Of a DNA stretch of 64,000 nt, positions 45,013 to 55,194 are shown piece by piece. A model generated the notes under the pieces. That model had not been told where the DNA came from. It did not search any database and saw nothing but the letters and a program-made list of their open reading frames with translations. Position 1 is the first letter of the stretch, and each line of letters begins with the position of its first letter. The position numbers and the translations under genes were made by a program. Source of the stretch: Verrucomicrobiota bacterium (GTDB lineage: Bacteria; Verrucomicrobiota; Verrucomicrobiia; Limisphaerales; Palsa-1400). The stretch covers positions 64,001 to 128,000 of the forward strand of contig JBEKYR010000005.1 in the NCBI GenBank assembly GCA_049510745.1, given 5' to 3'.

Positions 45013-45240
45013 TCAAGACTTGCGGCAGCGCGAGGCCAACGCCTTCACGACAGGAACAAGTCGGCAGTCTTCCAACGGGCGGTAATGCAGTGGCCTGCGG
45101 CGGGCGCGTTTGAGCCAAGCCACATCCTCGGCGTCCTCCACGCGCTCCAAGAGTTCTTCATAATTCTTGATGGGGATGATGACCGAGACGGGTTTGCCGT
45201 TGCGCGTCACGATTTCAGGTTCTGGCATTGTCGCCTTCAT
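45013..45240 (-). CDS. Phd/YefM-like antitoxin (3' end possibly degenerate)
   Basis: IVTRNGKPVSVIIPIKNYEELLERVEDAED. Confidence 0.7.
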   Translation of the reverse strand: MKATMPEPEIVTRNGKPVSVIIPIKNYEELLERVEDAEDVAWLKRARRRPLHYRPLEDCRLVPVVKALASRCRKS

Positions 45241-45264
45241 AGTCGTGGATTACCGTCTCCACGT

Positions 45265-45453
45265 TCAGGCACGCGGAGTGTTCTCCTCCTCATCCAGCGC
45301 GCGGAAAGATGCCGCCGCCAGAGCCGCGAAATCGTCATCCGTCAAATCATCAGACATGGGAGCACGTTCGACGATGGCGCGTCGAAGCTGTTGACGCTCC
45401 TTTTCCGAAAGCTGCTCGAACTCGCCAAGAATTTGAGTGACTGCTTGTGTCAT
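45265..45453 (-). CDS. Small acidic antitoxin-like protein
   Basis: MTQAVTQIL.EFEQLSEKERQQL...LTDDDFAALA..F..LDEEE, addiction-module-like composition. Confidence 0.55.
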   Translation of the reverse strand: MTQAVTQILGEFEQLSEKERQQLRRAIVERAPMSDDLTDDDFAALAAASFRALDEEENTPRA

Positions 45454-45542
45454 GTCCTGAACATACGCCGACGGAAAGGACTGAGCAAGCGCCGGGTATT
45501 AAGCGATTGACAAGCAGTACGATTCGTGATAAAGGAGCGATC

Positions 45543-46172
45543 ATGACTAAGGAAGGGATTATCATTGCCGCTTTCACGACAATGGCCATGTTCTCTTTAC
45601 AACGGTTGGAAGCTCAGGGGACATTAACGATGGCGACTGATCCGACATTCGGGCCAAACTCACTAATTGTTGACACGGCAACAGGTCTGAACTGGCTAAA
45701 CCTAAAATACACAGATGGCTTGAGTTATGACCAGGTCATTGGGGAGATGGCGCCGGGAGAGCTCTTCGCGGGATTTACGTATGCTAGCTCTGCCCAGGTG
45801 ACTACACTTTTTGCGGATGGTACGCCAGGGAACGCAAATTATTCGCCCACGAGTCCTGCAATTGCGACATTCATTGATTTGGTTGGAAGCACCGGAGAGC
45901 AGAACGGATACCCTTACTCCATGGGTGAAGTGCTAAACGGACCACCTGGTATTATTGGTGGCGAGCTTATCATACCGACGTGGGGCCTTTTTGTTGCAGG
46001 TTACAACGGCGTCTTTTCTTATGGTGTGCAGGGGTCCAGGCAAGGAGAGTGGTACGGGGGCGGTTTCGGAAGCTGGCTTGTGGAAGCTGTACCGGAGCCC
46101 AAGACATGGTGCTTGTGTTTGCTTGCCGCACCATTTGTAATCAGCGCGGTTCGGAAAAGAAGCAGAATATGA
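45543..46172 (+). CDS. PEP-CTERM sorting-domain surface protein
   Basis: Signal peptide; DTATGLNWL motif; C-terminal VPEP + hydrophobic helix + RKRSR; AT-richer. Confidence 0.85.
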   Translation: MTKEGIIIAAFTTMAMFSLQRLEAQGTLTMATDPTFGPNSLIVDTATGLNWLNLKYTDGLSYDQVIGEMAPGELFAGFTYASSAQVTTLFADGTPGNANYSPTSPAIATFIDLVGSTGEQNGYPYSMGEVLNGPPGIIGGELIIPTWGLFVAGYNGVFSYGVQGSRQGEWYGGGFGSWLVEAVPEPKTWCLCLLAAPFVISAVRKRSRI

Positions 46173-46385
46173 TACTGTTTGGGATTTTTTAGCGGATTTC
46201 TGAGGATTCGTGAGGAGCGCGCGATTTCGGAAGCGCCCTAACGATAACGCCTTGCAACGTGTGAGGATTGGTGAGTAAATAGTATTGTCACTTTCGAGTC
46301 AGTCAGCCTTATGCCAGTTGCGCTGATATGATACATGAATATAACTAATGCGTTAATTTTTCGCTTGCTTTGTTCGCTCTGTTCG

Positions 46386-46424
46386 TAATGCGGGGAATGG
46401 CGGGAGTGGCGGGGCTCGAACCCG
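46386..46424. repeat. att site distal to the tRNA (39-bp direct repeat)
   Basis: TAATGCGGGGAATGGCGGGAGTGGCGGGGCTCGAACCCG, identical to 51307-51345. Confidence 0.95.
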
Positions 46425-46439
46425 CTACGAATCATTGCA

Positions 46440-46484
46440 AATCAAGGACTTAGGTGGGCTGCCATCACAAGGAGCCTCACAAAT
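46440..46484 (+). promoter_or_regulatory. IHF-consensus site and putative integrase arm-type sites
   Basis: AATCAAGGACTTA matches WATCAAN4TTR; GAGCCTCACAAAT 46472-46484 recurs at 51159-51171. Confidence 0.6.
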
Positions 46485-46607
46485 CTCTGGCGTGTTGGGG
46501 CAGGACCTGTCACGCGTAGTCACTGCATGGGCTGATCTTCCTCCGCCTCTCAAGGCTGCAATCCTCGCCATTATCGAGGCCGCCGGGAAATAGGAAAGCG
46601 GCTACCT

Positions 46608-47546
46608 GTGGACACGCAAGCCAGTGGGGGCACGGAAGGGCCGGGGGCGGAGCGGCGCGAAGCGCCGCCCGCACCCGGCCTTCCTTGTCTAAATAGTAAC
46701 AATTCAGACAACGCGGAAGCGAGTCCGTGGAATCTCCTGACGGGTTCGCATCGCAAGGTGGCCTTCTGTCTGCAAGGAGAAATTCTCGCTTTGGTTGAGG
46801 ACTTCGGTATTGAGCATCTTGGATTTTTAACCCTCACTTTTGCTGATCATGTCGTTGACATCAGGGAAGCGTCTCGGCGGTTTAACAATCTCAACCGGCG
46901 CGTATTGAAGGCCCGTTACAAGCGCCTGGTGGCGGTGCCAGAGCGGACGAAGATTCAGAGGCTGCATTTCCACTGCCTGTGCGTGTTAGACGTTGATATC
47001 CGCACTGGCTGCGATTTTGAGGCTTTCAAGAAAGGGGATTACCGGTCGGCATCGGCGGTTCTTAAGTCCGAGTGGAAGTTTTGGCGCGAGACTGCGCCCA
47101 AGTATGGCTTCGGTCGGACTGAGTTGCTGCCGGTTAAGTCAACCGCCGAGGGCATCTCGAAATACGTTGGGAAATACATCGCCAAGCACATCGACTGCCG
47201 GGTCGAAAAGGACAAAGGCGCGAGGTTGGTTCGCTACATCGGTTATCGCCCTGGGGAGCGGTCGTTCCACCCACACATGATGTTCAATTCGGAGCATGCC
47301 TGGCTGTGGCGGCAGAAGGTAGAAAAGTTCACCCGCCAAAATCGCATTTTTGACATGGAGCATTTCACGAAGATTTGCGGGCCTCGTTGGTGCTACTTTT
47401 TTCAAGACGCGATTCTTCACACGGATTTGCCTCCTGGCACGGTGTTTCCGTCGTTGGCTCTGGGGTTGGACGAGTCGGAGCGCAAGAGCGCCAGGGAGTG
47501 TTTGCTTTTGAAAGTTCGTCTTTGCAAAGACATCGACAAGCTGTGA
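46608..47546 (+). CDS. Rolling-circle replication initiator (HUH endonuclease, two-Tyr type)
   Basis: Motif I FLTLTF, motif II LHFHCL, motif III YVGKYIAK; start codon uncertain. Confidence 0.88.
   Translation: MDTQASGGTEGPGAERREAPPAPGLPCLNSNNSDNAEASPWNLLTGSHRKVAFCLQGEILALVEDFGIEHLGFLTLTFADHVVDIREASRRFNNLNRRVLKARYKRLVAVPERTKIQRLHFHCLCVLDVDIRTGCDFEAFKKGDYRSASAVLKSEWKFWRETAPKYGFGRTELLPVKSTAEGISKYVGKYIAKHIDCRVEKDKGARLVRYIGYRPGERSFHPHMMFNSEHAWLWRQKVEKFTRQNRIFDMEHFTKICGPRWCYFFQDAILHTDLPPGTVFPSLALGLDESERKSARECLLLKVRLCKDIDKL
46634..46705 (+). other. Candidate double-strand replication origin (GC hairpin plus AT-rich tract)
   Basis: Stem GGAAGGGCCGGGGGCGGAGCGGCGC-GAA-GCGCCGCCCGCACCCGGCCTTCC followed by TTGTCTAAATAGTAACAATTC. 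Confidence 0.6.
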
Positions 47547-47748
47547 GTCCGCACTGTCAATTACACCGTGTAACCTCGGAACTGCGCGGAGCGTAACCAA
47601 CACAACCAAACAGGACCACCCTTGCCACCCTGGGCAATAGGGAGAACCTGGCATTGGAAAAAACCATCCTGGGCAAGGGGCATCTCAATGCGATTTGTCT
47701 TGCTAGGGCCATCAAAAAGCGCAATGGTGGCCGAAATTTAAAACACGC

Positions 47749-48594
47749 ATGACAATCGTTGTTGGACTAATAGGCAAGGAATCAATCGTTTTAGCGAGTG
47801 ACAGCCAGTCAACCTATGGAGTGGCAAAGTTACTGAACGCAAGAAAAATAGGCGTCGTCGCATTTGAAAATGGAACGGCACTTGTTGCACAAGCTGGCGC
47901 GGCGTATCCGGCGTCTCGCGCAGTGCAACTTTTTGAACGGAAGGCAAAAAGCCTTCGCGTTACTGATTCCGAATCGTTTATTAAGGCCGCTCGTGACTCT
48001 GTATTAGAAGTGAAACATTGCCTAATTGAAGGACAAGGGGGAGCAGCGTTTTCAGAAGATAGACGGGAGCAATTTTTTAGATGTGACTACTACTTTAAAT
48101 TGATGGTCGCTTACTATCTTAACGACCAGCCTTTCATTTTCACGATTGATAGTTATGACTGTCTGCCGGTCCATCTGAAATCGGATTATGTGGCAATGGG
48201 ATGCGGTGACACTTTAGCGTATTACCTTTTAAGCGAGATTGTGGAACTAGGGATGCCATTTACGAACTGCATGGCGCGTGCAATCTACGTTGTGGAAAAG
48301 GTCAAACAAAACGTTGAGGGATGCGGGGGATCGACATGCGTTGGAGTTGTTCATAACGTCCCTGATTCGGATGATGATTATACCGCGAAAGTCCGCCGTT
48401 CAAAAGGATTGACATTACCGTATAGCAGTGCTCGTGTTCTTGATCAAAATAGAATCAGCGATATTGCAAGGAGACTTACAGACGTTGATTTTAAATGCAG
48501 GAAAGATAGAAACAAGCAAATTATAGCGATGATTCAAGGTGTGGAGGCTGATTATCAGAACGAATGGGACGAATCGCCGGAGGAAGTACAATGA
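47749..48594 (+). CDS. Proteasome-beta/HslV-fold Ntn-hydrolase-like protein (element cargo)
   Basis: M-T1-IVVG...VLASDSQ...RKI; later VAMGCG and GCGG at the positions of the GSG and SGG motifs. Confidence 0.75.
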   Translation: MTIVVGLIGKESIVLASDSQSTYGVAKLLNARKIGVVAFENGTALVAQAGAAYPASRAVQLFERKAKSLRVTDSESFIKAARDSVLEVKHCLIEGQGGAAFSEDRREQFFRCDYYFKLMVAYYLNDQPFIFTIDSYDCLPVHLKSDYVAMGCGDTLAYYLLSEIVELGMPFTNCMARAIYVVEKVKQNVEGCGGSTCVGVVHNVPDSDDDYTAKVRRSKGLTLPYSSARVLDQNRISDIARRLTDVDFKCRKDRNKQIIAMIQGVEADYQNEWDESPEEVQ

Positions 48595-48713
48595 GTAAGC
48601 CAGGTATCCAAGTCGGTTTTTACTGGCGATAACCAGGATTTGTTTCTTGAAGACACTGTTCCTGTTTTGAGGACTGCGTGCGGCTTAGTGCAGTATCACA
48701 TGTGGCAGCAAAT

Positions 48714-49154
48714 TTACTTGAGGTTTTGCCACCGGACCAATATTCCATCGCTGAAATAGAGGAAAATGTCCGGTTCGGCAGTTTCGAGAGTGACAGGGTC
48801 GGGATCTAAATATGACCATAAATCAAATGAACCGCCAATTCCTTGACTTGTTTCAATATGCCACGGGCGGCCCATGACCACGCGGACTTGCTCTTCGTCC
48901 ATACCGATTGAAATCCGTCCGTTCTTGAAGTTGTCCAGCAATCTGGGGTCGGCATTTGGATGTGCTTCCATGTATGCTCGCGCTCTCTCGGAAATTGCAG
49001 ACGGGAGACGTTGGTCGAGTTCGTCGAGCGTAAATTGCGCTGCGGATTTATAGTGCTCTGTGGCCGTGTCGGCAGGGGGTTGTCCATATTGAGGGGGGAT
49101 GGGAGACCCACATCCCGCGATTGCGACAAGAATGACTGACAGAACGATTCTCAT
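48714..49154 (-). CDS. Lipoprotein with SmpA/OmlA(BamE)-like C-terminal domain
   Basis: IAGC lipobox; ISIGMDEEQVRVVMGRP...W.Y...LYFSDGILV. Confidence 0.75.
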   Translation of the reverse strand: MRIVLSVILVAIAGCGSPIPPQYGQPPADTATEHYKSAAQFTLDELDQRLPSAISERARAYMEAHPNADPRLLDNFKNGRISIGMDEEQVRVVMGRPWHIETSQGIGGSFDLWSYLDPDPVTLETAEPDIFLYFSDGILVRWQNLK

Positions 49155-49478
49155 TGTTTGGATAGTATCACGCCCGATAGCTGTCCGTCAATAATGTGAG
49201 AATGCGCCTGGTGGTGACGGCATTGGCCGCAGTGTTGCGGTGGCAGAAAGGGCGCAATCCTGGGGACAAGGACGACACGACCAGGCACTTGTCGGGGCGG
49301 AGCGTTCGCGTGTTGGCATTTGGCTTGGCCTTTGTGTTCGCAGCAAGCCGGATGCCAACACGGGAACGCGCAGCGGGGAAATGCTCATGGTTTCTAATGT
49401 GATAATGATTGCAATTAGAATTACTAAAAACGTTTTTATTTGATTGCTATGTTCGTTTTGTTCGTTTAGTTTGATGCC

Positions 49479-49877
49479 ATGAAAAGAAAACGAACAGGCG
49501 CGAAAGTGATAGCCGGGAAGGCAACGCAAAAGGCCCCCGTGCGAGCGGAACAAAAATCAGAGAACCAATGGCCGCCCGGGCATCTCACAGAATCCTCGGA
49601 TGGGGTGCTGAGAATCCGTCCGTTTCCAGAGAGCCTTCTGCACGAAGCCGAACGAGAGCCTGATCATGTGGACTTGGCGGAATACTGGCGGGTGATTTTT
49701 AAGCTGCGCGAAAAGGGCTTCACGTTTCGTGATATTGCACTGTGGCTTTCGGAGCGCAACGTTGAGGCGGACCACAACGCCGTTTATCGGGTGTACTCCA
49801 ATCATATGACCGCCGAGCAGACTGCAATAGAATCGGACCTGGAAGAACGGGAAAAGCAAATGATCGAGGAGTTGTGA
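49479..49877 (+). CDS. Putative HTH DNA-binding protein
   Basis: LREKGFTFRDIALWLSERNVEADHNAVYRVY; first gene of a tight HTH-xis-int run. Confidence 0.65.
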   Translation: MKRKRTGAKVIAGKATQKAPVRAEQKSENQWPPGHLTESSDGVLRIRPFPESLLHEAEREPDHVDLAEYWRVIFKLREKGFTFRDIALWLSERNVEADHNAVYRVYSNHMTAEQTAIESDLEEREKQMIEEL

Positions 49878-49878
49878 T

Positions 49879-50100
49879 ATGTCTGACGTTGTCGAAAGGG
49901 CGAGCGAGGGCAATGCGGAATCGAAACTGGTGCGGCTGAAAGGGGCGGCGGCTCGGCTTGGTGTCAGTGTGCGGACATTGTACCGCATCATTGCGGAAGG
50001 GGGCTTGCCCTTGGTGCATATTCGAGGGTGTTCGTGTTTGAAAGAAGGCGACTTGAGCGCTTACGTGGAAAAAAGCAAACGAAGGAAAATTTATGATTAA
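49879..50100 (+). CDS. Excisionase-like (HTH_17/AlpA-type) protein
   Basis: AAARLGVSVRTLYRIIAEGGLP; overlaps the integrase start. Confidence 0.85.
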   Translation: MSDVVERASEGNAESKLVRLKGAAARLGVSVRTLYRIIAEGGLPLVHIRGCSCLKEGDLSAYVEKSKRRKIYD

Positions 50101-51376
50101 CAGCATTTACAAACCCAAGGGGTCGCGGATATGGCGCTGGAGATTCCGGCAGGTCCCTGCCGATGGCAAAATTGAAGATGTATCGCTTGGGACATCTGAG
50201 AAACAGGTGGCGGAAAAACGGCAGGGTGAGCGGCGGCGAGAAAAGGAGCTTGAAAGAGGGGGGTTCATTCCTCCAAAGGCTATACGTGATGCGTCACACC
50301 GCAAGCTGTCGGACCATTTGCAAGACTTCCTGGGCGATATGCGCCGGCGGGGGAAGTCGGAAAAGTATCTGGCAAACCTTGAATTCCGTGTTGGCAGACT
50401 GATTTCGGATTGCGCTTGGAACACAGCAAGCGACGTTTCGGCTGATTCATTCCAAGCCTGGTTGCGTAGGCGACAGGAATTGAAGGACAAGACGGCGAAT
50501 GATTATTTAGAAGCTGCGCGGTGTTTTTTTAACTGGCTGGTGAAACTCGGTCGGGCGGGGTCTAATCCTCTGCTGTCGGTGGAAAAGGCAAAAACGAAAG
50601 GCGGCAAAGCACAGGGGCGCCGGGCGTTTAGTGATGACGAAATGGTGCGTTTGCTGGCTGTTGCTGGCGAGCGCAAGGCGGTTTACCTGATGGCGGTCCA
50701 TACGGGCTTGCGGAGAGGGGAATTGGCGGCGCTCAAGTGGGGAGACTTGCATCTGGATGCGGTGACACCGTTTGTCAACGTCCGGGCATCGACAACTAAG
50801 AACGGCAAGGCTGCGGATATGCGATTGCTTCCTGAATTGGTGGCAGCACTGGCTGAACTTAAAACCAACGGGACAAATGGCGATGACCTTGTTTTCAAGC
50901 GGATTCCCCGGATTGAGAGGTTTTACAGGGACTTGAAAAAAGCCGGGATTGCGCTCAAGGACGCATTTGGACGCAAGGCCGTCTTTCATTCCCTGCGGCA
51001 TACATTCGGGACTAATCTGGCGCGGGGTGGAGTGGCAAGCCGGGTTGCAATGGCTCTGATGCGGCACAGTGACCGAAGATTGACGGATCAGATTTACACT
51101 GATGAAAACCTGCTCGGCACCTGGGCGGCGTTCGACAGTCTGCCCAATTATGGGGAGCGAGCCTCACAAATAGCCTCACAGATTTTAGTCGCAACGGGTC
51201 AAAACGTGTCATTGCCTGTCACAACGAGTGCCGGGCCGGAAGTGGCAAAAACCCTTGTAAACATTGGCGATTGTCACGTTTTGGCACTGCCTGGCACAAC
51301 GGGTCATAATGCGGGGAATGGCGGGAGTGGCGGGGCTCGAACCCGTAACCTCTGCCGTGACAGGGCAGCGCTCTAA
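50093..51376 (+). CDS. Tyrosine recombinase/integrase; frame runs through att and stops inside tRNA-Asp (antisense)
   Basis: TGLRRGE, TKNG, FHSLRHT, MRHSD, QIYT catalytic set complete. Confidence 0.95.
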   Translation: MINSIYKPKGSRIWRWRFRQVPADGKIEDVSLGTSEKQVAEKRQGERRREKELERGGFIPPKAIRDASHRKLSDHLQDFLGDMRRRGKSEKYLANLEFRVGRLISDCAWNTASDVSADSFQAWLRRRQELKDKTANDYLEAARCFFNWLVKLGRAGSNPLLSVEKAKTKGGKAQGRRAFSDDEMVRLLAVAGERKAVYLMAVHTGLRRGELAALKWGDLHLDAVTPFVNVRASTTKNGKAADMRLLPELVAALAELKTNGTNGDDLVFKRIPRIERFYRDLKKAGIALKDAFGRKAVFHSLRHTFGTNLARGGVASRVAMALMRHSDRRLTDQIYTDENLLGTWAAFDSLPNYGERASQIASQILVATGQNVSLPVTTSAGPEVAKTLVNIGDCHVLALPGTTGHNAGNGGSGGARTRNLCRDRAAL

Positions 51377-51395
51377 CCAATTGAGCTACACCCCC
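51319..51395 (-). tRNA. tRNA-Asp (GTC), integration target
   Basis: GGGGGTGTAGCTCAATTGGTTAGAGC...CTGCC-CTGTCAC-GGCAG...GGTTCGAGCC...CACTCCC-G-CCA. Confidence 0.96.
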
Positions 51396-52954: not shown

Positions 52955-53423
52955 GGCGTCAAGAAGTCTGGCGCCCTTGCCGCGCTTCGCGCCCCTCCCC
53001 CCACTCGGAAGTTACGCAAAGGTTCGATGGGCGGCAAGGGCGCCGCAATGTCTCCAACATGTTCTGAGTTCATGTCTCGCCTGCCTGTCACGCCGCGCTC
53101 CTGGCGTCGGTGGGTTAAAATCCAGATTCCCGCTGCCGATCCGAAAGCATTCCCACCCGAGCGTGACAACAATTCATCGGCAGGTTCCGGCATTTTGTTA
53201 AATTTCGGGTCAGGGAACAACTGAGGCAGCGCCTTAAAAAGAGCGGCAAAAATTGCCCACTGCATGGACAGGAAGAGATTTCGATTTGAAATCAACTTGA
53301 TGAATTTGTCGAGCGTTGTAAACTTGCTTCGTGCGCAAAACAAAAGAAACCGCGTATCAACTCACCCGCCATCATTTAGTCCACATTCTTCGCGAGGAAG
53401 CGCAGTCGAACAGCGTCCACTCG

Positions 53424-54302
53424 ATGACGATTGGCGATTACACCGATGCGATCATTTGCGGCGATGCAGAGTCCACGGTGCGCGCCCTGCCATCCGAATC
53501 CGTCAACGCGATTATCACGAGTCCGCCTTATTACCAACAGCGGGATTACGGCGCGGGGTTGCAAATTGGAAACGAATCTTCGCCGGAAGCTTACGCGCAA
53601 AAGTTGGCGGGCGTTTTCCGCGAATGTTTCCGAGTGCTGGCGAAGGATGGCACGTTGTGGTTGAACCTCGGAGACAAATACAAGGAGGGGCGGTTGTTGG
53701 GAATGCCGTGGCGCGTCGTGTTCGCCTTGGAAAGCCTCGGCTGGATTCTCAGGTCTGACATCATTTGGCATAAAACCAACGCCATGCCCGCTTCGGTGAA
53801 GAACCGCCCGACGACGGATCACGAATACGTCTTTATGTTTTCCAGGTCGCCGGATTATTTCTACAACGCCGACGCCATTCGTGAACCGCACGTCACGTTC
53901 ACGGAAAAAAGCAGGATGAGGGGCGGGCGCGGGCATTTCGGAAAACGGGGAGGAACGCCGGAGCAAGGCAAGAACGGCGGAAATCCCAATCTCCACAATG
54001 GGCGCTGGGACCAGGCGTTTCATCCGTTGGGCAGAAACAAAAGAACCGTTTGGCAGATTCCTCTGTCAAAATTCCCGGAGGCTCACTTCGCGGTGTTCCC
54101 GGAAAAGTTGGTTGAAACCTGTGTTATGGCTGCGACGAAGCCAAACGGTTTGGTCCTCGACCCGTTCGCTGGCAGCGGCACTGTTGCAATTGTAGCCCAG
54201 CAGTTGGGGCGTCACTTCGTCGGGATTGATTGCAGCGAGAAATACTGCGCTCTGGCCAAAAAGCGTCTCGAAAAAAGCCAACTGGCATTTGGCCTGGCCT
54301 GA
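53424..54302 (+). CDS. Site-specific DNA methyltransferase (N4C/N6A, beta class)
   Basis: TSPPY precedes DPFAGSGT; IIWHK, HFAVFP; start may be GTG 53331. Confidence 0.93.
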   Translation: MTIGDYTDAIICGDAESTVRALPSESVNAIITSPPYYQQRDYGAGLQIGNESSPEAYAQKLAGVFRECFRVLAKDGTLWLNLGDKYKEGRLLGMPWRVVFALESLGWILRSDIIWHKTNAMPASVKNRPTTDHEYVFMFSRSPDYFYNADAIREPHVTFTEKSRMRGGRGHFGKRGGTPEQGKNGGNPNLHNGRWDQAFHPLGRNKRTVWQIPLSKFPEAHFAVFPEKLVETCVMAATKPNGLVLDPFAGSGTVAIVAQQLGRHFVGIDCSEKYCALAKKRLEKSQLAFGLA

Positions 54303-54303
54303 A

Positions 54304-55194
54304 TCAGGCAAACCGCTTGAAAAATGGAATCAACTTTTCCACTTCATTTTCGAGCATCGGTCCGATGGCCTCGGTCTGGTTTGGATTGGCGCGAAGATAA
54401 ATCCAATGCTCGCACCGGAGGGATTTCAGATCTCCGCCCCAAGACTCCGCAATGATGACAGGCACGCATTCGTATCCGTTCTCATGCGCCACTGAAATTG
54501 CCTTGAAAATATCTCGTGTGAACAGATTGGCATGGCCGCCGCCCATCGTTTCGCGCGTTTTGACTGGCACAAGAATCGTTCGCTTCTTGCCGATGATCTG
54601 CACATCGAATGTTTCTTCTTTGATTCGCTTTTCGCCATCTCCGATTTCAAGCCGAACGGAGCGTCTCTCAAAAACTGTTCGGAAAGCCCCGCGAACAAGC
54701 TCCTCAAATCTCGTTCCTTTGAGCGCCCGGCGACTTCCCTCAAGCCTTGCCAGCATCACTTCGGACAACGCCGGCCACGACCAACTTTCGGCCTGCGGAA
54801 ACAATGGTCCGACGAATTTGCGCAACTGATTCAAGAGGTTTGCGCGCTTTTCATCCAGGGATTCGCCTTGCACTGAAGTCAGGAGCGGTCGCAGCCGTTG
54901 AGCAGGCGCGTCCCGTAGAATCCACGCGAGGAAATACCATTTTGCCGTCGCGTCTTTGTAAGGTCTGGCCAAACCATCAAGCAATTGAACACCGCTCCGC
55001 CTCGCCAAATAATTTCCAATGACCTTCGTCGCTTTCGCATCCGACGGCTCGTTTATGAAAACGTAAATGTTTTGATAGCCGTGCTGCTTTAAATACACGC
55101 AGAAGTCCTCATAGTATTTTTGATTCTGGCGGACGATGGCCACCAAATCTTGCAGCCGCAGATTCTCGATTATGAAGCCCATGAAATGTTTCAA
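54304..55194 (-). CDS. Putative PD-(D/E)xK restriction endonuclease
   Basis: GTRFEE...FDVQI...VPVKTRE; convergent with the MTase, stops 1 bp apart; AT-richer; ATG alternative 55182. Confidence 0.65.
   Translation of the reverse strand: MKHFMGFIIENLRLQDLVAIVRQNQKYYEDFCVYLKQHGYQNIYVFINEPSDAKATKVIGNYLARRSGVQLLDGLARPYKDATAKWYFLAWILRDAPAQRLRPLLTSVQGESLDEKRANLLNQLRKFVGPLFPQAESWSWPALSEVMLARLEGSRRALKGTRFEELVRGAFRTVFERRSVRLEIGDGEKRIKEETFDVQIIGKKRTILVPVKTRETMGGGHANLFTRDIFKAISVAHENGYECVPVIIAESWGGDLKSLRCEHWIYLRANPNQTEAIGPMLENEVEKLIPFFKRFA

Follow-up and report, generated by a model that had tools for sequence, protein, structure and literature searches.

How can a chromosome carry a nicking initiator together with the origin it acts on and not be rolled out from that origin? 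The question is raised by a small element integrated at positions 46386 to 51345 of a 64,000-nucleotide stretch of DNA from a Verrucomicrobiota bacterium (assembly GCA_049510745.1, contig JBEKYR010000005.1, positions 64,001 to 128,000; the window denotes this whole stretch). The element offers a testable answer. We consider it likely that it is an intact, single-copy integrative rolling-circle replicon, the replication of which is gated by excision. A first-pass annotation had proposed an integrative plasmid with rolling-circle replication (RCR) or a satellite of a helper phage, and the former proposal gains support from the intact int, xis and rep genes and from a survey of the Rep family, which speaks against confinement to inoviruses or large islands.

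The element and its probable origin

The element is bounded by an identical 39-nt direct repeat, as had been claimed, and the start-to-start spacing of the two copies equals the length of the circle predicted before, 4,921 bp. In the metagenome contig L088, which holds an identical copy of the element, the same repeat is the longest exact repeat flanking Rep. The target gene, which had gone unnamed, is a tRNA-Asp(GTC) gene whose 3' end is overlapped by the right repeat copy. The repeat runs 12 nt beyond the end of the tRNA, and the attL core consists of the displaced tRNA-Asp 3' end plus these 12 nt. An intact tRNA gene, a displaced fragment and an integrase within or overlapping the island are the features by which Islander defines a tRNA-targeting genomic island, and all are present here. 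The G+C content of the element is 0.52 versus 0.60 for the genome, and rep occurs once in the host genome, which is 94% complete. At least half of the element's words are present in 11 sequencing runs, three of which may be source runs; no RNA run is listed among them, and the run labels point to a peat-dwelling host.

Family scans of the window covered nine open reading frames (ORFs), eight of them inside the element. The gene list given earlier, with int, xis, a helix-turn-helix (HTH) gene, a two-tyrosine HUH Rep and two cargo genes, was borne out, all genes being intact, and among the nine ORFs there is indeed no Zot, coat, relaxase, type IV secretion system (T4SS) or primase family. The element lacks the Zot/pI morphogenesis ATPase and the small coat genes of an inovirus prophage. 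In the part that we tested it corresponds to an integrative mobilizable element (IME), having its own integration/excision module and no T4SS. Phage satellites of the PICI and PICMI kind have a primase/theta replication module, and no primase family is found among the ORFs scanned. An Rfam search returned the tRNA and one sub-threshold tRNA-like match only, and a search of a phage collection gave a single weak match, to Microviridae.

Rep carries the motifs FLTLTF, LHFH (H120/H122) and Y186-x3-Y190-x2-K193, which are invariant or nearly so in 60 homologues; motifs I, II and III with two tyrosines, together with the family score, identify it as an HUH initiator. Its fold is predicted with a pLDDT (predicted local distance difference test) of 84.6, and HUH Rep structures make up nine of the ten best Foldseek rows; every row has E > 0.01, and no match reaches E <= 0.001. 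Of 26 records of small plasmids, 25 encode a phasyl Arp protein with 41-53% identity to Rep (best E 3e-69), the figure for plasmids of 1.3-1.8 kb being 42-47%, and the two phasyl plasmid records that we opened contain the same origin motif as the element. The hairpin that had been placed adjacent to rep lies within its 5' end (z -5.8), where it is followed by the motif CTTCCTTGTCT-N4-AGTAACAA; hairpin and motif together are the probable double-strand origin. The CTTG here may resemble the nick site of phiX174 and pC194. The origin codons CCT and TGT are each used in 127 of 128 distinct loci, compared with 156/972 (16%) and 120/395 (30%) for the codons of these residues elsewhere in rep. Judged from these sequences, the conservation of the LPCL peptide in Rep reflects conservation of the DNA. 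In IMG/VR the origin pattern occurs in 14 viral contigs of 5.5-11 kb, 8 of which share a contig with Zot-carrying loci.

The integrase frame across att and the gene behind it

The int gene had been taken to end at attR. Its reading frame continues through the core, and the last nine amino acids of the integrated protein are host-derived. In silico joining of attR and attL changes Int from 427 to 473 aa by the gain of a 55-aa tail, which ends in a conserved W-x-x-L-x-x-x-L-K-A-A-I-L-A-I helix pair. An att core within the int ORF and a C terminus altered by integration are what characterize integrases of the Mx8 type, and the window integrase shows both. The frame is open and in register across the core in 28 of 29 distinct elements, counting those with a tail, an integrase and a detectable core (three truncated repeat-less loci and four duplicates were excluded), and it is retained across several different tRNA targets. 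Because the profiles were built partly from elements in this count, a subset found blind to the frame, with the tail profile alone in a sample of the phylum, is the fairer test: 13 of these 14 elements are in frame, where chance would give about 1 in 3 for each, kin being non-independent. Natural fusions of Int and tail are on record. P0138 is a protein of 480 aa, 80% identical to the window Int, with the same tRNA-Asp core on a contig of 4,704 bp; P0150 lies on 5,239 bp, P0135 on 8,479 bp and P0141 on a 625-kb contig. We infer the circularity of fused-integrase contigs from their length alone. A homodimer prediction for the tail scored 0.21 against a mark of 0.42, which counts neither way on binding. 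Repeats of 13 nt in the tail region and in the 3' part of int may be arm-type sites, and similar second repeats lie within attL/attR of several relatives.

Behind the tail stands rep, which starts with GTG 15 nt past the tail stop, preceded by AGGAAAG; the relative L090 has ATG there. Among 41 distinct loci in which a tail is followed by Rep, the rep start overlaps the tail stop in 16 and lies within -12 to +40 nt in 23. A further count used 21 elements, from 20 of 31 tail-profile matches fetched in the phylum sample. In 15 of them an RCR initiator follows the tail, 13 belonging to PF23343 and 2 to the unrelated Rep_trans; the other six comprise one candidate without an initiator match and five loci showing none. 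Several of the 13 PF23343 initiators fall outside the subfamily of the window Rep, and for 4 of the 15 the score falls below the curated cut-off. That unrelated initiator folds are kept in this slot suggests that the position matters. These unrelated initiators, HUH or Rep_trans, and the precedent of SNJ2, whose replication operon becomes complete only once the virus has been excised (PMC13107129), suggest that excision probably switches on replication. The gene layout of the element, with the replication gene directly behind int-tail once circular, would fit an SNJ2-type replication operon transcribed only after circularisation. A promoter-like site at 51281-51310 would face rep in the circle; compared by eye in 15 element ends it shows no clear conservation.

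We propose the following sequence of events. Int and Xis would recombine attL and attR into a 4,921-bp circle and leave tRNA-Asp whole. Because the att core lies inside int, the nine host-derived Int residues would then be swapped for the conserved 55-aa tail, as the reading frame and the protein records of sister elements indicate. Since the tail stop abuts rep, the circle would yield a single run of HTH, xis, int with its tail, and rep, which may be expressed together. Integration would deprive rep of both the transcript arriving from upstream and its translational coupling, and would in this way silence the nicking enzyme while its origin is chromosomal. In the circle, Rep would nick the origin within its own 5' end, at the putative nick site, and roll out the + strand, and a conserved double hairpin (Table 1) may prime the second strand. 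By analogy with phage Mx8, the long form of Int is probably biased towards integration or otherwise altered in activity. The middle slot appears to hold exchangeable cargo, often anti-phage, and since the element has no transfer genes it would need to hitch-hike for transfer.

Several observations weigh against an excision-gated replicon. In nine elements, which have a second integrase type, the ORF fails to extend across att, and in L022, L024 and L029 it does so but the tail motif is missing; the excision switch is not universal for this Rep. In 5 of the 41 loci 500-770 bp lie between tail and rep, and a promoter scan gave 6 sites compared with 3.1 +/- 1.9 in shuffles. Junctions of the attP type are also found in tandem arrays (L011, L280), so that fused proteins need not derive from circles, P0141 with its long contig being a case in point. 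The depth of the rep contig in four contig runs (27.7, 15.1, 6.2 and 5.0) shows no clear excess over the flanks (29.1/24.3, 17.6/13.5, 5.2/4.9 and 5.7/4.2 in the same order). A joint from 51345 to 46425 was sought in the same four runs and none is listed; contigs show neither copy number nor rare forms, and they are a weak test of the attP joint because assemblies break at the repeat. PADLOC gave no match for the window's own cargo.

Two neighbouring observations concern sister elements. In L280 (3538-16074) two elements with different Reps stand in tandem at tRNA-Asn, and the junction between them resembles an attP-type int-tail fusion. Runs X1 and X3 (46433 to 51162) contain a contig that resembles the attL of a sister tRNA-Asp element from the same peat samples, at depths of 21.9 and 27.6; this second attL was not seen in the host assembly.

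Table 1. Features of the element and its target gene (positions in the window)
Feature	Position	Strand	Basis
attL core	46386..46424		exact 39-nt repeat with 51307-51345
Integrase tail	46425..46593	+	in frame with int across the core; missed by the first-pass annotation; natural fused proteins P0138, P0135, P0141, P0150
Putative Int arm-type site	46472..46484	+	13-nt repeat shared with 51159 and 51171
Two-tyrosine HUH rolling-circle initiator (rep), phasyl Arp-like	46608..47546	+	PF23343 E 9e-9, over cut-off
Probable double-strand origin	46634..46702	+	GC hairpin 46634-46684, then CTTCCTTGTCT-N4-AGTAACAA (46680-46702), inside rep
Cargo, Ntn-hydrolase/proteasome-beta-like	47749..48594	+	PF00227 E 1e-6; Thr after Met; invariant D18, K33; Atlas
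Cargo, probable lipoprotein with weak BamE-like domain	48714..49154	-	PF04355 E 0.008, under cut-off; signal-like N terminus ending GC
Conserved double hairpin	49207..49383	+	z -6.4; missed by the first-pass annotation
HTH-like regulator	49479..49877	+	weak family matches, E 0.04-0.09, none over cut-off
Excisionase-like HTH_17 protein (xis)	49879..50100	+	TIGR01764 E 6e-8, PF12728
Tyrosine integrase (int), reading through the att core	50093..51376	+	PF00589 E 4e-20; R-K-H-R-H-Y motifs at residues 204-335
Two putative arm-type sites in 3' part of int	51159..51183	+	13-nt repeat
attR core	51307..51345		exact 39-nt repeat
tRNA-Asp(GTC), intact target gene	51319..51395	-	overlaps right repeat copy

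Relatives, cargo and competing explanations

We found 1,866 Rep homologues. Among 194 fetched Rep loci, some of them duplicates, 67 carry a tyrosine integrase, 23 Zot and 2 a PM2-like capsid module. The refuting condition named in the first-pass annotation, that Rep homologues always sit in complete inoviruses or larger islands, was addressed with the 96 loci of at least 8 kb and does not hold: an integrase is present in 56, Zot in 14 and a PM2-like capsid module in 2, and the remaining 24 lack all three. Zot and the integrase (or tail) never occur together, as 0 of the 23 Zot loci carry the element's integrase type or tail. By terminal repeat 25 of the 194 loci are circular, 24 of them of 1.5-2.5 kb and one an inovirus. 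Such small circles (L019, L094, L101, L106, L109-L112, L120, L135, L142, L144, L148, L152; further L153, L156, L158, L162, L164 and others) hold Rep and usually one small DNA-binding-like gene, and several have been binned into unrelated metagenome-assembled genomes. The att-bounded elements measure 3-10 kb and target Asp, Gly, Ser, Val, Pro, Thr, Glu, Arg, Cys and tmRNA genes; near-identical Reps are paired with different integrases and tRNAs (L008 Asp, L009 Gly).

A FastTree of 149 Reps, from which 14 short or duplicate rows had been removed, places the window Rep in a starred clade of 73 rows with 12 att-bounded elements, 13 mini-circles, 48 unclassified loci and no inovirus. In an IQ-TREE of 74 rows two Verrucomicrobial inovirus Reps form a pair apart from the clade of the window Rep. 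Integrative and mini-circle Reps are interleaved in the trees, and because many forks are weak we claim no direction of origin. Among 300 other genomes from the host's order, 22 have a match to Rep; among 300 others sampled from the phylum, 26 match the tail. The family is common, widespread and often defence-carrying. Four loci with this Rep family are of a different kind: L065 (9926-14345) and L234 (8995-12207) are PM2-like double-jelly-roll proviruses with a P2-type capsid and ATPase, and L221 (8674-14206) and L223 (4746-9552), from two genomes in the host's order, are Zot-carrying prophages of inovirus-like type.

The cargo of the relatives includes type I, II and IIG restriction-modification, Kiwa, TIR, AbiU2, RloB and Cap15, and further toxin-antitoxin, superinfection immunity, two integron integrases and integrons. 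The cargo scan covered 27 of 31 elements (L098, L038, L161 and L088, the latter identical to the window, were excluded), and in their 185 ORFs the Pfam scan found no Zot, coat, relaxase or coupling protein; as ORFs were picked mechanically at >= 60 aa, smaller coat proteins would escape in the relatives. The Ntn-hydrolase cargo of the element has 8 homologues at 31-42% identity, and homologues of its HTH-like gene stand upstream of xis in L090, L280, L284 and L294. Complete integrons, with an integrase and repeat-separated cassettes, lie inside mini-elements (L018 11653-16192, L107 1870-5958, also L016, L116 and L145). By eye, a cargo gene in L072 (11554-12360) resembles another Ntn-hydrolase, without a Pfam match, and in L038 (4168-9401) two integrases, beside the family Rep, enclose a Cas9-like gene, a further two cas-like genes and a repeat array.

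The double hairpin shows compensatory change in 17 of 55 pairs over 15 copies, lies on the rep strand in Rep loci where listed, and has no Rfam match. In the simplest reading of the sequence it is a candidate single-strand origin; alternatively, it is a candidate packaging or transfer signal. A 43-nt repeat in L098 was considered as att and rejected, being the double hairpin itself. Partial copies of the first hairpin (window 49207-49310) occur in the host genome at C45:33046, C17:52426, C6:100275, C6:182937, C9:46204 and C39:32647. Some adjoin toxin-antitoxin-like genes, and the summed depth of the bin is 4-20 times that of the element.

How such an element travels can be explained in different ways. 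One possibility, which we regard as rather doubtful, is a phage satellite: a filamentous phage, or a tailless one of the double-jelly-roll kind, would package its single-stranded circle, the double hairpin serving as the signal for packaging. The same Rep family is found in Neisseria-type inoviruses, in the Zot prophages L221 and L223 of the host's order and in the PM2-like proviruses L065 and L234, PM2-like prophages having been reported for Verrucomicrobia (PMC9502842). The origin motif is shared with the Neisseria-type inovirus L001, defence-rich cargo is typical of satellites, and I55, an island that a jumbo phage moves, includes an inovirus Gp2-like gene (PMC12595487). However, the host genome has no Zot or capsid match, the element has no capsid-redirecting gene, the double hairpin was undetected in Zot or capsid loci, no strict origin pattern turned up in L221, L223, L234 or L065, and IMG/VR scans with the window Int and P0138 gave no match. 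Slightly less probable still, and in our view unlikely, is an IME in which Rep doubles as relaxase for a conjugative helper. Of 144 streptococcal IMEs, 118 encode putative relaxases of the RCR-initiator type, and 35 of these 118 lack a coupling protein (PMC5704250); the latter have the same minimal gene set as the element. Yet the host genome has no match to PF02534 or PF19044 (coupling protein, TraG-type ATPase), neither a coupling protein nor a relaxase family appeared in the ORFs of the 27 relatives, and the known mobilisation cases require TcpA-type helpers, as far as described in the available text of the same study (PMC5704250). The remaining weight goes to other or mixed routes.

Different explanations also exist for what the element is. 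The tail might be a separate small protein, or a by-product of arm sites in an open frame, its fusion to Int being functionless. It can be read as a 52-aa ORF from TTG 46435, it partly overlaps a putative arm site, and databases hold many orphan look-alikes of about 55 aa, mostly from Planctomycetota (score 0.90, a lead only). We think this improbable, as the frame with Int is kept in nearly all elements across several tRNA targets, the conserved helix pair extends beyond the arm site, and databases contain the fusion in full length. Decay of a filamentous prophage, with loss of the genes for morphogenesis, would account for a Rep family and an origin common to complete inoviruses. Against it stand the intact genes of the element, the mutual exclusion of Zot and this integrase, the inovirus-free Rep clade with the Verrucomicrobial inovirus Reps as a separate pair, and the absence of Zot and coat matches from the 185 ORFs of relatives. 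On the strength of Rep distribution, trees and cargo scan we reject this reading as very improbable.

We thus favour the excision-gated integrative replicon. A wider proposal is offered much more tentatively. The element may represent a class of minimal integrative replicons found throughout the Verrucomicrobiota, and perhaps in Planctomycetota, in which one recombination would turn the integrase into a long form tuned to integration and couple its translation to that of any RCR initiator behind attL, a place taken by two unrelated folds. Such elements would be the integrated form of a pool that includes the 1.5-2.5-kb Rep circles, and would ferry anti-phage cargo in the particles of phages, filamentous or tailless, that use this Rep family. 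The mobile DNA of soil and peat Verrucomicrobiota has received little study; there the family appears to carry restriction, Kiwa, TIR and other defence genes, even integrons. For genetic tools in Verrucomicrobiota, obvious parts to start from are the small replicon and the integrases with their tRNA specificity, and the tail offers an explanation for a group of orphan 'hypothetical proteins' of about 55 aa.

The surroundings of the element have features of their own. To the left of attL, 45013-46385 is low in G+C (0.52) and holds a small antitoxin-like/toxin-like pair and a PEP-CTERM gene; within it, 45063-45495 recurs adjoining tRNA-Asp in other genomes (L242, L243, L245). These features, and the continuation of the repeat for 12 nt beyond the tRNA, suggest that this site once held an earlier element, of which a remnant persists. 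A possible operator, made of TGTTCG direct repeats at a distance of 9 nt, occurs just outside attL (46363-46385) and before the HTH gene (49450-49465). To the right, 53331-55194 lies in a low-GC patch and holds ORFs that by eye are DNA methyltransferase-like and restriction-enzyme-like.

Comparison with known systems

The first-pass annotation knew of no named family with this gene set in this lineage. For the lineage our searches found none either; beyond it, streptococcal IMEs are known to combine an integrase with an RCR initiator while lacking a coupling protein (35 of 118, PMC5704250). These IMEs, with initiators of the Rep_trans, Rep_2, PHA00330 and Viral_Rep kinds, are like the element in combining a site-specific integrase, an RCR initiator and cargo without a T4SS. 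They differ in Rep family and phylum, and most have TcpA; an attP inside int with a rep-coupled tail is not found in the text available for them (PMC5704250). Closest in the initiator are the phasyl-type mini-plasmids of Enterobacteriaceae, Pasteurella and Aeromonas, with which the element shares the Arp-type Rep and the origin motif in the rep 5' end. These plasmids are free and of 0.7-2.3 kb, and the two opened records have no integrase, whereas the element is integrated, measures 4.9 kb and has int and xis; it is not a free 1-2-kb integrase-less replicon. Our literature search found no paper using the word 'phasyl', the name being taken from record annotation.

Inoviruses (the Neisseria type; L221, L223) and PM2-like proviruses (L065, L234) have the same Rep family, and the Neisseria type shares the origin motif. 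Both differ from the element in having Zot or a capsid plus ATPase, and none has an element-type integrase. The tmRNA island I55 resembles the element in its tyrosine integrase, tRNA-type target, defence cargo and lack of transfer genes. It is far larger (its 18-kb shared region alone) and AlpA-regulated, and the accessible part of its description makes no mention of rolling-circle replication (PMC12595487). Charybdis elements were considered and rejected, as they show no integrase-Rep likeness in the part of the report available (10.1101/2025.08.03.668216).

For the proposed switch the nearest parallel is the pleolipovirus SNJ2. As is proposed here, excision joins int to replication genes and creates a new ORF across attP, which in SNJ2 has been demonstrated to be necessary for replication (PMC13107129). 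In contrast to the element, SNJ2 is an archaeal virus with structural genes and a Rep of the Rep-Arvir family, and its new ORF is separate from Int (PMC13107129). Integrases of the Mx8/Mx9 and SSV1 types likewise have attP inside int, and integration changes the C terminus and the behaviour of Int (PMC6070905, PMC4383910). Mx8 is, however, a 49.5-kb phage, and coupling of a tail to an RCR initiator is not described for Mx8, Mx9 or SSV1 in the consulted portions of these papers (PMC6070905, PMC4383910). A literature search that left most subscription papers and all supplements outside its coverage gave no description of the family or of its combination of ingredients. Each ingredient has precedent; what appears to be new is the family and its combination of an attP inside int with a tail that is coupled to rep.

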